A stretch of 19,942 bases of DNA from a virus (Duplodnaviria; Heunggongvirae; Uroviricota; Caudoviricetes). The stretch lies in IMG/VR virus record IMGVR_UViG_2879748301_000007; one strand, given 5' to 3'. This document shows, piece by piece, positions 3,001 to 9,000 of this stretch (positions are counted from its first letter, which is position 1; the number at the start of each line of letters is the position of its first letter). A program made the position numbers.

Positions 3001-6000
3001 CCCATTGAAGCGATGTGTCAGGTATTTGGTGTATCCAGGAGCGGTTATTACAACTGGGTACAGCATGAACCCTCAGACAGAAAACAAAGTGATGAGCGGT
3101 TAAAACTGGAGATTAAGGTGGCACATATCCGCACTCGCGAAACATATGGAACCCGGCGGCTCCAGACGGAGCTGGCAGAGAATGGCATCATCGTTGGTCG
3201 TGACCGACTGGCACGTCTTCGTAAGGAGCTGAGGCTACGCTGTAAGCAGAAACGCAAGTTCAGAGCGACTACGAACCCGAACCACAATCTGCCAGTTGCG
3301 CCAAATCTGCTGAACCAGACGTTCGCTCCTACAGCACCAAATCAGGTCTGGGTGGCGGACCTGACGTATGTTGCCACACAGGAGGGATGGTTGTACCTCG
3401 CTGGCATCAAAGATGTTTATACGTGCGAAATTGTCGGCTACGCCATGGGAGAGCGCATGACAAAAGAGCTGACAGGTAAAGCCCTGTTTATGGCGCTCAG
3501 GAGCCAGCGCCCACCTGCCGGGCTAATCCACCACTCTGATCGAGGTTCACAGTACTGCGCATACGATTACCGGGTCATACAGGAGCAGTCTGGTCTGAAA
3601 ACATCAATGTCGCGTAAAGGTAACTGTTACGACAACGCTCCGATGGAAAGCTTCTGGGGAACGCTGAAAAATGAGAGCCTGAGCCACTATCGTTTTAATA
3701 ACCGGGATGAAGCCATCTCAGTAATACGGGAATACATTGAGATTTTCTACAATCGTCAGCGTCGTCACTCTCGTCTGGGGAATATCTCCCCGGCAGCCTT
3801 CAGGGAAAAATATCATCAGATGGCTGCTTAAAAAAAGAACAAATGGTAGTGTCCGCTATTGCCAGTACACCTCATATTGGCTACGTAATTAAAACAGAAA
3901 ATAAAGAAACCCCATTCACTGTAGTTGATATCGACGGTCTATCAGGAAACTTTAAAACTCTTGTTGAAGGTGCCACAAAAATGTGCCTAGTTTACATCGG
4001 AAATAATCTGCCCGCAGAAAAAAAGCCGAATTTCTGGCAAATCTGATTGCAATGAAATTAAAAGGTGAAATCTGAAAAAAAGAAAGCCTGCACAGTGTGC
4101 AGGCCTGAGTGAAGAACCTGGGACATTTATTCATCACTCGCAGTAATTTTAATCTGAGTTGAGGTTAAAAAACAATGAGCACAAAACCACTCTTCCTGTT
4201 ACGGAAAGCGAAAAAATCATCCGGTGAACCTGACGTCGTCCTGTGGGCAAGCGACGATTTTGAATCGACCAGCACCACTCTGGACTATCTGCTCGTTAAG
4301 TCAGGTAAAAAACTGAGCAACTATTTTAAAGCTGTTGCCACAAATTTTCCTGTCGTTAATGACCTTCCCCCTGAAGGTGAGATCGATTTTACCTGGAGTG
4401 AACGCTATCAACTCAGCAAAGACTCCATGACATGGGAACTAAAACCGGGAGCAGCGCCAGACGACGTTCACCACCAGGATAATGCTCAAGAAACCAAAGA
4501 ACTGGCGGGAGGCCAGGAAGAAAACGCGCAGGCAGACGCCCACGAGGATTGCCAGGATTGCGAAGTCTCTGTAGCCACTTTGCGGTTCACACAGCGTCTT
4601 CTGCACATTTTTACGTATGCTGCCGGGGATCTGAAATACCTGCATCATGCCACCCGTGAACAACGCAAACACATTACTGCTCTTGAGATGGATCAGGAAA
4701 ACAGCTATGTCCAGAATCTGCTGTTGGCCATACGCGGCATGGCAGAACCGACAACTCTGGATAATGCCGCCCTGCTCCGCCTGACTGATGCAATTAAGGC
4801 TGAGGTGTACTGGCAATAGCGGACACTACCATTTGTTCTTTTTTTAAGCAGCTATCTGATGATATTTTTCCCTGAAGGCTGCCGGGGAGATATTCCCCAG
4901 ACGAGAGTGACGACGCTGACGATTGTAGAAAATCTCAATGTATTCCCGTATTACTGAGATGGCTTCATCCCGGTTATTAAAACGATAGTGGCTCAGGCTC
5001 TCATTTTTCAGCGTTCCCCAGAAGCTTTCCATCGGAGCGTTGTCGTAACAGTTACCTTTACGCGACATTGATGTTTTCAGACCAGACTGCTCCTGTATGA
5101 CCCGGTAATCGTATGCGCAGTACTGTGAACCTCGATCAGAGTGGTGGATTAGCCCGGCAGGTGGGCGCTGGCTCCTGAGCGCCATAAACAGGGCTTTACC
5201 TGTCAGCTCTTTTGTCATGCGCTCTCCCATGGCGTAGCCGACAATTTCGCACGTATAAACATCTTTGATGCCAGCGAGGTACAACCATCCCTCCTGTGTG
5301 GCAACATACGTCAGGTCCGCCACCCAGACCTGATTTGGTGCTGTAGGAGCGAACGTCTGGTTCAGCAGATTTGGCGCAACTGGCAGATTGTGGTTCGGGT
5401 TCGTAGTCGCTCTGAACTTGCGTTTCTGCTTACAGCGTAGCCTCAGCTCCTTACGAAGACGTGCCAGTCGGTCACGACCAACGATGATGCCATTCTCTGC
5501 CAGCTCCGTCTGGAGCCGCCGGGTTCCATATGTTTCGCGAGTGCGGATATGTGCCACCTTAATCTCCAGCTTTAGCCGCTCATCACTTTGTTTTCTGTCT
5601 GAGGGTTCATGCTGTACCCAGTTGTAATAACTGAGGTGTACTGGCAATAGCGGACACTACCATTTGTTCTTTTTTTAAGCAGCCATCTGATGATATTTTT
5701 CCCTGAAGGCTGCCGGGGAGATATTCCCCAGACGAGAGTGACGACGCTGACGATTGTAGAAAATCTCAATGTATTCCCGTATTACTGAGATGGCTTCATC
5801 CCGGTTATTAAAACGATAGTGGCTCAGGCTCTCATTTTTCAGCGTTCCCCAGAAGCTTTCCATCGGAGCGTTGTCGTAACAGTTACCTTTACGCGACATT
5901 GATGTTTTCAGACCAGACTGCTCCTGTATGACCCGGTAATCGTATGCGCAGTACTGTGAACCTCGATCAGAGTGGTGGATTAGCCCGGCAGGTGGGCGCT

Positions 6001-9000
6001 GGCTCCTGAGCGCCATAAACAGGGCTTTACCTGTCAGCTCTTTTGTCATGCGCTCTCCCATGGCGTAGCCGACAATTTCGCACGTATAAACATCTTTGAT
6101 GCCAGCGAGGTACAACCATCCCTCCTGTGTGGCAACATACGTCAGGTCCGCCACCCAGACCTGATTTGGTGCTGTAGGAGCGAACGTCTGGTTCAGCAGA
6201 TTTGGCGCAACTGGCAGATTGTGGTTCGGGTTCGTAGTCGCTCTGAACTTGCGTTTCTGCTTACAGCGTAGCCTCAGCTCCTTACGAAGACGTGCCAGTC
6301 GGTCACGACCAACGATGATGCCATTCTCTGCCAGCTCCGTCTGGAGCCGCCGGGTTCCATATGTTTCGCGAGTGCGGATATGTGCCACCTTAATCTCCAG
6401 TTTTAACCGCTCATCACTTTGTTTTCTGTCTGAGGGTTCATGCTGTACCCAGTTGTAATAACCGCTCCTGGATACACCAAATACCTGACACATCGCTTCA
6501 ATGGGAAATTGTTGTCGCCATTGTTCGATTAACGCGTATTTTTCAGCGACTCCTGTGCAAAATACGCTGTTGCTTTTTTTAATATATCGCGCTCAAGGCG
6601 AGCTTCATTTAACGCCTTACGCAGTTGCAGAATTTCAGATTCCAGTTCAGCCACCGTGCGGGAACCAGGAGTACCGAGCCCTTTTCTGGCGGCGGTAACC
6701 CATTGTCCTAAAGTGCCTTCAGGAAGGGATAATCGGGAAGCGCCTTCACTGATCGAAAGTTGATTTTCAAGAACCGTTCTGACAGCTTCGGCTTTGAACT
6801 CTTTAGAGTAACGTTGGGTTTTTCTGCTCATTATTAGCTCCTTCTGATGCCATTTTATTTCAGGAAGGAGTGTCCGTTAAACTCAGGCTACCTCAAACCG
6901 CTCCTGGATACACCAAATACCTGACACATCGCTTCAATGGGAAATTGTTGTCGCCATTGTTCGATTAACGCGTATTTTTCAGCGACTCCTGTGCAAAATA
7001 CGCTGTTGATTTTTTTAATATATCGCGCTCAAGGCGAGCTTCATTTAACGCCTTACGCAGTTGCAGAATTTCAGATTCCAGTTCAGCCACCGTGCGGGAA
7101 CCAGGAGTACCGAGCCCTTTTCTGGCGGCGGTAACCCATTGTCCTAAAGTGCCTTCAGGAAGGGATAATCGGGAAGCGCCTTCACTGATCGAAAGTTGAT
7201 TTTCAAGAACCGTTCTGACAGCTTCGGCTTTGAACTCTTTAGAGTAACGTTGGGTTTTTCTGCTCATTATTAGCTCCTTCTGATGCCATTCTATTTCAGG
7301 AAGGAGTGTCCGTTAAACTCAGGCTACCTCAATATGCTTTCCTTCCAGGTAAACCTCGTGAACAATGTTATCAGTAGTTGCAACAGTGGCTTCATAATTG
7401 GTGTTCATGTTTTTCTCCTTAATTAAGGTTGAGCGAATCCCTGCCATTGCTGGCATAAATTCAGTTTCGAATAGTCAGTTAATTAAAGTTCGTGTGCCAT
7501 CTGGTCTTTTTCGGCGCAGATTTCACTACAATATTTGCGTTTCTTTTTCCTCATCATGGTTCCGTGCATGTAAATAAGTTCAGCAGTGTAAGCCTTATCA
7601 GGGCTTACTTGTCTGTCACACAGGCCATAAGCACAGGGAATTAAATCGGGATCACCTTTCTACTGGAGGTTTTTTTTGATTATCCATAACAAATTTTTGA
7701 TTCCGGTGTGTGTTATGGTCTGCTGAGGTGCAGAGGTAAAACAATAATCAAGCATAGGGTTCATATCCGTAGCTCCATTTTTATTTTAAAGAAAGTAATT
7801 GTTCCACAGTCATATTTTTAATTGCGCCCCGGTTAACAAGAGTCCATCCCTGTTTTTCCAGATAAAACCGGAAAGTCTCCAGGGTACAGACCAGTGCGCC
7901 ATCAGGAACGGTTTCGGTGAATTCGACATTGCCGAATTTGTCGAAGTGAACAACCAGAGTGCGACCATCACCCGGAATCATCTTGTCTGCAGGTGGGGTG
8001 TTATTCTGGCGCAGTTCGGCCTCCATGCGGTCGAACTCAGCAATGTAGGCTTCCTTGAATGCGGCGGCTTTTTTGCCAGTGAAGCCCATCACCAGGAAAA
8101 CGAAGCCGTTTTTGGTGATTTGGTACATTGGGCGTTTTTCGCCTTTGGCGTCGGTATAGGTGACGGGCTTAAAATTAAGCCGGTTAAACTCCGGCGAGCA
8201 TTCGAGAGTTTCGATCTTCTGAATAACGTTTTTGTGCATTTTCCGGAAGAACTCCGCAACCGCAACAGACGTAGTGACAGCGCGACCATTTTCGATGGTT
8301 GCGTCAGGGTGAGAAAGGGTAAGGATAGTAGCCATGATGGCAGCCTCGATAGTCAGTTTAAATGACTCACCACCAGAGGTAGCAATCTCATGGGTGGTGA
8401 GACGCACAGGGTTGCTACAACCGGTGACTACCGAAACCGGCCAGCCTTGCGGCTGCCCTGCACGCCCCACCATAATCTGAATGTGGCTGTGCTTGACGCA
8501 TAAAAAAACCGCCTGAGCGCGGTTATGCGCAGTAGTCATCGTCGGGGTAGCAATCCCGGCACCCGTTTTATGAGGTGCAGGTGCACTATAATTCCACCCG
8601 TTCTGGTTTTCAATAGCTACATTCAACATTTTCTCTTTCCTTTCATCACCGAAGTGAACTTTGTTGATGCGGTGCCTGGTGCCTCCAGGTGACGTTAACC
8701 AGTTAACAATTACAGTTGGCTTTCCCACCCAAACCAATAAGGACTAACATGACTTTTAACTGTGCCGCGTGCGCATAGCCGCATTCACCGCATCACAAAA
8801 TTCACTTTAAAAAGGGCGGACATCAGCCAGCAATTAAACCGATGCCGCCAACTGGTACTTCACACAGCAATGTCGTTATTTACAACCGGAAGCGCACTCC
8901 CACCATTTAAATTTCACAGACAAGACCGACTCTTTATGGATACCGGAAATGCGCCTTCGTGTTGTGCCCGGTTTTATTTCACCACTTCCGGGCTTTGGTG

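Follow-up and report, generated by a model that had tools for sequence, protein, structure and literature searches.

A racC gene split between two inverted IS600 copies

The stretch of DNA analysed here (the window, 19,942 nucleotides, IMG/VR virus record IMGVR_UViG_2879748301_000007) is a decayed, ipaH-carrying Rac-like prophage located between ybhA and pgl in Shigella flexneri. It contains the two halves of a split racC gene, the 5' part of recE and three copies of the insertion sequence (IS) IS600, of which copy A is complete, copy B lies in the opposite orientation and copy C, also complete, is nested within B (Table 1). Four unique flanks are found at the IS600 termini. The left terminal inverted repeat (IRL) of copy A abuts ATG (2608-2610) and its right terminal inverted repeat (IRR) abuts TAT, and the IRR and IRL of copy B abut GGC and ATA, respectively. 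Both racC fragments end at such termini, the 3' fragment at copy A and the 5' fragment at the IRL terminus of copy B at 7331, and the TAT and ATA that flank them are reverse complements of each other.

Deleting one copy of this triplet fuses the two fragments in frame into a 246-bp open reading frame (ORF) of 81 codons with the end ...PNFWQI*. The rejoined sequence of 1992 bp (reverse complement of 8400..7335 followed by 3875..4800) aligned in a single piece to Escherichia coli FDAARGOS_944, with 100% coverage and 99.4% identity, and in that genome the two window segments abut, their overlap being exactly the TAT triplet. The split of racC is therefore not a chance resemblance: window 7408..7332 on the minus strand and 3875..4046 on the plus strand are confirmed as two halves of one gene. 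The original prediction, made from the window alone, had proposed this, and its coordinates, termini and in-frame 81-codon join were all reproduced. The intact reference and the ATA/TAT flanks likewise bear out its proposal that an IS600 insertion with a 3-bp duplication split the gene, and it was indeed a rearrangement between inverted copies of IS600 that brought the halves onto opposite strands. FDAARGOS_944 and four IMG/VR contigs carry an uninterrupted allele of 81 codons. The distance of 3.3 kb that had been given between the halves holds for the window, but shrinks to 2.0 kb in every other genome seen, the excess being due to the nested IS600 in copy B of the window.

The IS600 copies show the arrangement of the IS3 family, with an orfA of 100 aa and an orfB of 272 aa that match NCBIfam transpos_IS3 (1.2e-99) and Pfam HTH_Tnp_1 and rve. 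Near-identical sequences (99.1-99.5%) in reference genomes are annotated by the Prokaryotic Genome Annotation Pipeline (PGAP) as 'IS3-like element IS600 family transposase'. Copy C entered copy B at IS positions 434-436 and is flanked by the target duplication AAC (GTT in IS orientation) at 5629-5631 and 6896-6898, and the lengths of the two parts of B agree with this (831 + 436 = 1264 + 3). Besides that of copy C, complete 3-bp duplications of IS600 were read at the racC site (TAT) and in E. coli FDAARGOS_943 (TTG); at the recE site, the two GGC-flanked junctions were located on different contigs. Copy B differs from copy A at 5 positions (IS positions 41, 323, 490, 495 and 1212), whereas copies A and C are identical and form perfect inverted repeats of 1264 bp with 1757 bp between them. 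Further flipping could plausibly take place at these repeats in the window strain, which is relevant to assembly and typing.

Table 1. Features of the window discussed in the text (IS positions are counted from IRL).
Feature	Position	Strand	Remarks
ipaH, 5' end off window	1..1812	+	type III secretion system (T3SS) E3 ubiquitin ligase; Pfam NEL, LRR_TTSS; pgl-proximal prophage end
DUF4376 gene	1992..2609	-	Pfam DUF4376; severed by IS600 copy A at site a
IS600 copy A, complete, 1264 bp	2611..3874	+	orfA 2675-2977, orfB 3013-3831
racC 3' fragment	3875..4075	+	begins directly after IRR terminus of copy A
TAT, one copy of site-b (racC) 3-bp target duplication	3875..3877	+	
Poly-A tract of racC	4018..4024	+	A7 (A8 in K-12), -1 frameshift
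racC stop, 81-codon frame	4044-4046	+	
racC stop, ancestral 91-codon frame	4073-4075	+	
GC-rich hairpin	4084..4106	-	T-run on minus strand only; terminator-like, antisense to racC and recE
recE 5' fragment	4175..4800	+	codons 1-208; Pfam Exonuc_VIII (PF06630) 3e-67
GGC, one copy of site-c duplication (IS600 in recE)	4798..4800	+	
IS600 copy B, right part	4801..5631	-	IS positions 434-1264; IRR abuts recE fragment
IS600 copy C, complete	5632..6895	-	nested in copy B
IS600 copy B, left part	6896..7331	-	IS positions 1-436; IRL abuts racC 5' fragment
ATA (TAT on gene strand), second copy of site-b duplication	7332..7334	-	
racC 5' fragment	7332..7408	-	codons 1-25 plus 2 nt; 7408..7335 encodes MNTNYEATVATTDNIVHEVYLEGKH
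Shine-Dalgarno sequence of racC 5' fragment	7420-7415	-	AAGGAG-N6-ATG
ydaE homologue	7483..7764	-	upstream neighbour of racC; Q35* nonsense mutation
Rha/Ash-family phage regulator	7781..8629	-	early-left operon shared with ydaE and racC

The split gene is a frameshifted racC

The split gene is the racC of this Rac-like, ipaH-carrying prophage. Its product is 81% identical to RacC of E. coli K-12 (over 79 aa) and matches NCBIfam NF007306 (PRK09790) with an E value of 2e-41 over profile positions 1-78 of 91; a Pfam search of the 81-aa product returned no family. Synteny agrees with this assignment, as the uninterrupted prophage of FDAARGOS_944 has the order rha-ydaE-racC-recE and the Rac prophage of K-12 likewise has ydaE-racC-recE (b1351-b1350 being racC-recE).

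The two halves do rejoin into a single ORF, as originally predicted, but the 81-codon ORF is not the full-length gene: it is the A7 frameshift allele of a 91-codon racC. According to the DNA alignment to K-12, the frameshift in the poly-A tract swaps the last 16 residues (AEFLA.LIAMKLKGEI) for PNFWQI. The NF007306 score is 140 bits for the 81-codon ORF and 169.7 bits after correction of the frameshift, against a cut-off of 171, so that the product falls short of the full-length 91-aa protein of that family. PGAP labels the racC alleles of both FDAARGOS_944 and FDAARGOS_943 as 'frameshifted'. The tract was compared between window 4018-4024 and loci L001, L019, L031, L041, L050, L053, L055 and L004. 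K-12 and two IMG/VR contigs carry A8 alleles of 91 codons, and A7 alleles of 81 codons were found uninterrupted at five loci, on two allelic backgrounds. Since A7 is present in uninterrupted alleles, the frameshift predates the IS600 hit or is independent of it, and its occurrence on two racC backgrounds suggests recurrent slippage of the tract.

recE is severed by another IS600 insertion

The 214-aa ORF (4175-4819) that the original prediction listed among the displaced sequences turned out to be the N-terminus of RecE, truncated by a second IS600. recE is severed after codon 208, and its frame reads 19 nt into copy B, up to a stop at 4817-4819. In the reference, recE runs ...AAGGC|AGTTTTC across this site, and the GGC flank predicts a partner junction of the form ...GGCTACCTCA-GGC-AGTTTTCTC (IRL-GGC-AGTTTTC...). 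IMG/VR was scanned for the recE sequence just past the site, which was found in 38 contigs. It is part of an uninterrupted recE in 37 of them, and the last one, contig L049, carries exactly the predicted junction, followed by recE, gam, an AAA ATPase gene, a 768-bp break and the 3' end of int. The IS600 on the recE side of L049 is incomplete, and parts of other prophages lie against it. This junction and the TAT pair together indicate that the sites in racC (site b) and recE (site c) are simple insertions, in opposite orientations and 926 bp apart. racC and recE are both inactivated in the S. flexneri prophage.

A terminator had been claimed at 4075..4104, between the racC and recE fragments. 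This did not hold for the strand on which the two fragments lie, as only the minus-strand reading of the hairpin at 4084-4106 scored as an intrinsic terminator. In another IMG/VR record (IMGVR_UViG_2872192773_000003, locus L099), an extra IS911 (4919-6167) is present in the recE 5' fragment, at a position equivalent to ~4364-4376 of the window.

Comparison with a collinear prophage and reconstruction of the rearrangement

A collinear, un-inverted relative exists in FDAARGOS_944, which resembles enteroinvasive E. coli (EIEC) and in which the prophage is nearly intact between ybhA and pgl. Its overall order is pgl-ipaH-DUF4376-tail, head, lysis-replication-cro/cI-rha-ydaE-racC-recE-gam-int-ybhA. 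In finer detail, the int side reads int, xis, gam, recE, racC, ydaE, rha, cI/cro, ydaT and replication genes, and the pgl side reads Q region, transfer RNA genes, lysis, terminase, head, tail, tail fibre, DUF4376, ipaHb and pgl. Window 1-2610, with ipaH and the DUF4376 gene, maps to the pgl-proximal end of this reference prophage, at a distance of 34 kb from racC. As the S. flexneri loci have pgl, ybhD and ybhH immediately upstream of this stretch, the ipaH end is the same prophage end. The junction at copy A (site a) falls also within the 3' end of a gene for a tail-fibre N-terminal domain, and the reference DUF4376 coding sequence starts 3-5 bp past it.

For the reconstruction, the prophage is divided into four blocks: the end with ipaH (X1), the phage body of 34 kb whose last part is racC 5' (P), the piece of 926 bp made up of racC3' and recE' (M), and everything from the remainder of recE on (Z); rc stands for reverse complement. 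The reference order X1-P-M-Z then becomes X1-IS(+)-M-IS(-)-rc(P) in the window, with three breakpoints. As no single inversion makes three breakpoints, recombination between the three IS600 sites must have occurred at least twice. The single inversion of the original prediction is thus partly right: flipping 3875..4800 mends racC, but it does not restore the ancestral order and can be at most one of the events. Relative to the ipaH end, moreover, 3875-4800 keeps its reference orientation, and it is 7332-16217 that is inverted. Nor do the outer flank of copy A (ATG) and the inner flank of copy B (GGC) form a duplication pair.

Three IS600 insertions followed by homologous recombination between the copies probably account for the arrangement of the window. 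One insertion would have entered racC at codon 26 (site b, same direction as racC, duplication TAT), one recE at codon 209 (site c, opposite direction, duplication GGC) and one the tail-fibre/DUF4376 boundary 34 kb away (site a, presumably also a simple insertion). Homologous recombination among these 1.26-kb repeats would then have converted X1-ISa-P-ISb-M-ISc-Z into X1-IS-M-IS-rc(P). The split, the TAT and GGC duplications, the reference order and the fixation in S. flexneri are shown by the data, the number and order of these events are inferred, and any of three routes would lead to the order of the window. An inversion between a and c could have been followed by the small flip, or the small flip between b and c by the a/c inversion, or P could have been excised as a circle and then re-integrated, each of these routes taking two events. 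The outcome would be a racC split onto opposite strands and a racC3'-recE' piece separated from its promoter. The last event, confined to the window strain, would be the insertion of a further IS600 into copy B. The flanks fit this scheme, with exchanged target triplets on inverted IS copies (TAT at IRR of A and ATA at IRL of B) and with GGC at IRR of B, its partner standing at IRL of a third copy. More generally, one matching pair of IS flanks is insufficient for establishing a history, for which all flanks and an outgroup are needed.

Several observations speak against this reconstruction or leave parts of it without support. The partner junction expected for site a at the tail-fibre end, IRR-ATG-TGCATCCGG (ATG-TGCATCC...), was not found among the viral contigs, in which all 32 matches to the start of P are uninterrupted, and a simple insertion at site a is therefore unproven. 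The pattern is also absent from the genome contigs; the known junction of M with copy B is absent there too, these contigs evidently lacking S. flexneri. None of the M-IS B junctions could be placed in the genome from which contig L049 comes. In S. flexneri, IS911 followed by an IS2 fragment and ISSfl3 truncates the inverted phage body within its lysis region, beyond which ycaD-ycaC-dmsCBA-serS follow, and the predicted rc(P)-IS600-Z adjacency was not observed, so that further, later rearrangements must be invoked. The prophage is thus also an endpoint of a larger chromosomal rearrangement. Mapping of the crossovers by IS-internal single-nucleotide polymorphisms (SNPs) was dropped as uninformative: the SNP sets of the A and B copies differ from strain to strain, which suggests gene conversion among IS600 copies, and no crossover map was therefore drawn.

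Alternative histories

The separate insertion at site c and the b/c crossover might be replaced by a transposition-coupled inversion, in which the racC IS600 attacks the nearby recE site on its own molecule and generates an inverted copy and the 926-bp flip in one step, no RecA-type crossover being needed, with a second event of either kind at site a. Such an event predicts the same junctions as insertions plus recombination (TAT and GGC outside, GCC and ATA inside), no more than 926 bp separates the two sites, and the sequence does not discriminate between the two processes. IS3-family elements transpose by a copy-out/paste-in mechanism via a circular intermediate, and replicative inversions are not their normal outcome. 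As this is not the established pathway of the family, we regard a transposition-coupled inversion as unlikely.

The history as originally predicted, in which one IS600 insertion was followed by nothing more than a flip of the 926-bp segment through homologous recombination of copies A and B, is very improbable and as the sole event is refuted by the flanks, the reference order and the third junction. The reverse-complementary TAT and ATA agree with it, reversing the flip rejoins racC around one IS600, and of the two routes by two inversions, which are equally short, one may validly end with such a flip. However, with the flip undone, copy A is flanked by ATG and GCC, which is no duplication, and ipaH/DUF4376 is joined to the truncated end of recE, from which it is ~35 kb apart in the intact prophage. 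Moreover, the partner of GGC is a third IS600 junction at another place, and three breakpoints exceed one inversion.

An assembly artefact, in which a mis-join across identical 1.26-kb repeats had set the 926-bp piece in its present orientation or created the nested IS600, is extremely improbable: copies A and C are indeed 100% identical inverted repeats, and inversion by recombination leaves every terminus junction unchanged so that short reads cannot fix the orientation, but 15 gap-free assemblies produced by different projects agree in order and orientation, and the copy nested in B is bordered by a clean 3-bp duplication. A single deletion or any single inversion is ruled out by the three breakpoints and by the phage body, which is present and inverted beside copy B, and a switch driven by a site-specific invertase is ruled out by the breakpoints, which are the exact IS600 termini, and by the invariant orientation.

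Distribution of the arrangement and independent IS600 hits

All public S. flexneri genomes that were examined carry the rearrangement. The 15 gap-free assemblies, which include AE014073.1 (S. flexneri 2a 2457T), have the order and orientation of the window at 99.2-100% identity and without copy C, and two N-masked assemblies and two IMG/VR contigs agree on the arrangement. No orientation polymorphism was found among the 15 gap-free assemblies and the two IMG/VR contigs, and between these genomes the segment does not behave as a phase-variable switch. A public collection has index entries for the recE'::IS600 fusion protein in 363 blocks and for the IS600::racC3' ORF in 158. The arrangement recurs across assemblies and is therefore an old one that has become fixed in S. 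flexneri; the nested IS600 alone is specific to one strain. Copy C is absent from all 15 gap-free assemblies and from the two IMG/VR contigs, and a 267-aa ORF that crosses the nested-IS600 junction is not on record. In six other loci (L005, L009, L012, L089, L093 and L097), a 27-bp deletion within copy B (equivalent to window 5276-5300) shortens the fused transposase from 385 to 376 aa.

E. coli FDAARGOS_943 has the same prophage at the same chromosomal site, and its racC also carries an IS600 with a 3-bp duplication. Unlike in the window, however, this IS600 lies at codon 16, 30 bp upstream, in the opposite orientation and with the duplication TTG, and there is no inversion; it is an independent event. 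In recE of this strain, another IS600 causes a truncation at a different point, and the sequence next to it is deleted as far as the integrase gene. The same region of FDAARGOS_943 (L002, 9885-14209) also has an IS1 between ydaE and racC. In STEC strain 20.1 (E. coli that produces Shiga toxin), of bovine origin, a Rac-like prophage (L101, 2801-6396) has an IS600 at about codon 302 of recE, again an independent hit. IS600 has thus hit racC twice independently (codons 16 and 26) and recE at least three times (codons ~179, 209 and ~302).

Relation to known systems

The kind of event is already known: it is ordinary IS scrambling of a decaying prophage, in long-published genomes. The genome papers of S. 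flexneri 301 and 2457T reportedly describe IS-mediated chromosomal inversions and translocations. High rates of IS-driven rearrangement have been documented in Shigella (Seferbekova et al., bioRxiv 10.1101/2020.06.12.147751). The window shares with these inversions the inverted high-copy IS substrates, the exchanged target duplications, the pseudogenised genes and an ipaH amid prophage remnants and ISs. It differs from the large chromosomal inversions usually catalogued in being small, local and multi-step, within one prophage (926 bp plus ~34 kb). Our literature search found no paper on this particular locus. The finding is mainly a matter of annotation, in that the reason for the dead racC and recE is now documented.

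With the racC-recE region of the K-12 Rac prophage, the window shares the ydaE-racC-recE order, the closely related RacC and the PF06630 domain at the N-terminus of RecE. In contrast to K-12, its racC is an A7 allele split by IS600, its recE is severed at codon 209, the prophage occupies the ybhA/pgl site and not ttcA, and it carries ipaH. An inverted IS pair that brackets an inverted segment, with reverse-complementary triplets on opposite copies, is also what intramolecular replicative inversion of the IS26, IS1 or Tn3 type leaves behind. IS600, however, belongs to the IS3 family, and homologous recombination between independent insertions yields the same junctions.

Among blockers of the retron-Sen2 toxin RcaT, RacC (91 aa) was reported to be the strongest, and RecE was reported to act as a trigger (preprint 10.1101/2020.06.22.160242). 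The recurrent IS600 hits and the poly-A slippage at racC-recE might, speculatively, exceed chance. It is nevertheless quite unlikely that racC-recE, as a retron blocker and trigger, would be a preferred inactivation target in Shigella and EIEC, whether through selection for its silencing or as an on/off switch operated by slippage, and not simply bear a random IS load.

Other features of the prophage

The ipaH gene at the pgl-proximal end is annotated as ipaHb in EIEC genomes. In FDAARGOS_944 (L003, 30078-30173), the interval from ipaHb to pgl contains a fragment of a DNA-invertase gene, which adjoins duplicated tail-fibre and DUF4376 genes and may be the remnant of an invertible tail-fibre segment.

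The nonsense mutation in ydaE is a CAG>TAG change compared to FDAARGOS_944. The gene is called with lengths of 30, 46, 52 or 93 aa among S. flexneri assemblies, which suggests that its inactivation varies between strains.

At the distal end of the window (16214-19942), an IS911 (16214-17462) joins the hokD region to an 82-aa fragment of an Rz-like lysis gene (17460-17708), followed by an IS2 fragment and by ISSfl3, of the IS66 family. A complete IS2 of 1331 bp with the 5-bp duplication CTGAG, absent from FDAARGOS_944, is found at 9086-10416, and its last 281 bp recur in inverted orientation at 17682-17962 as the IS2 fragment.

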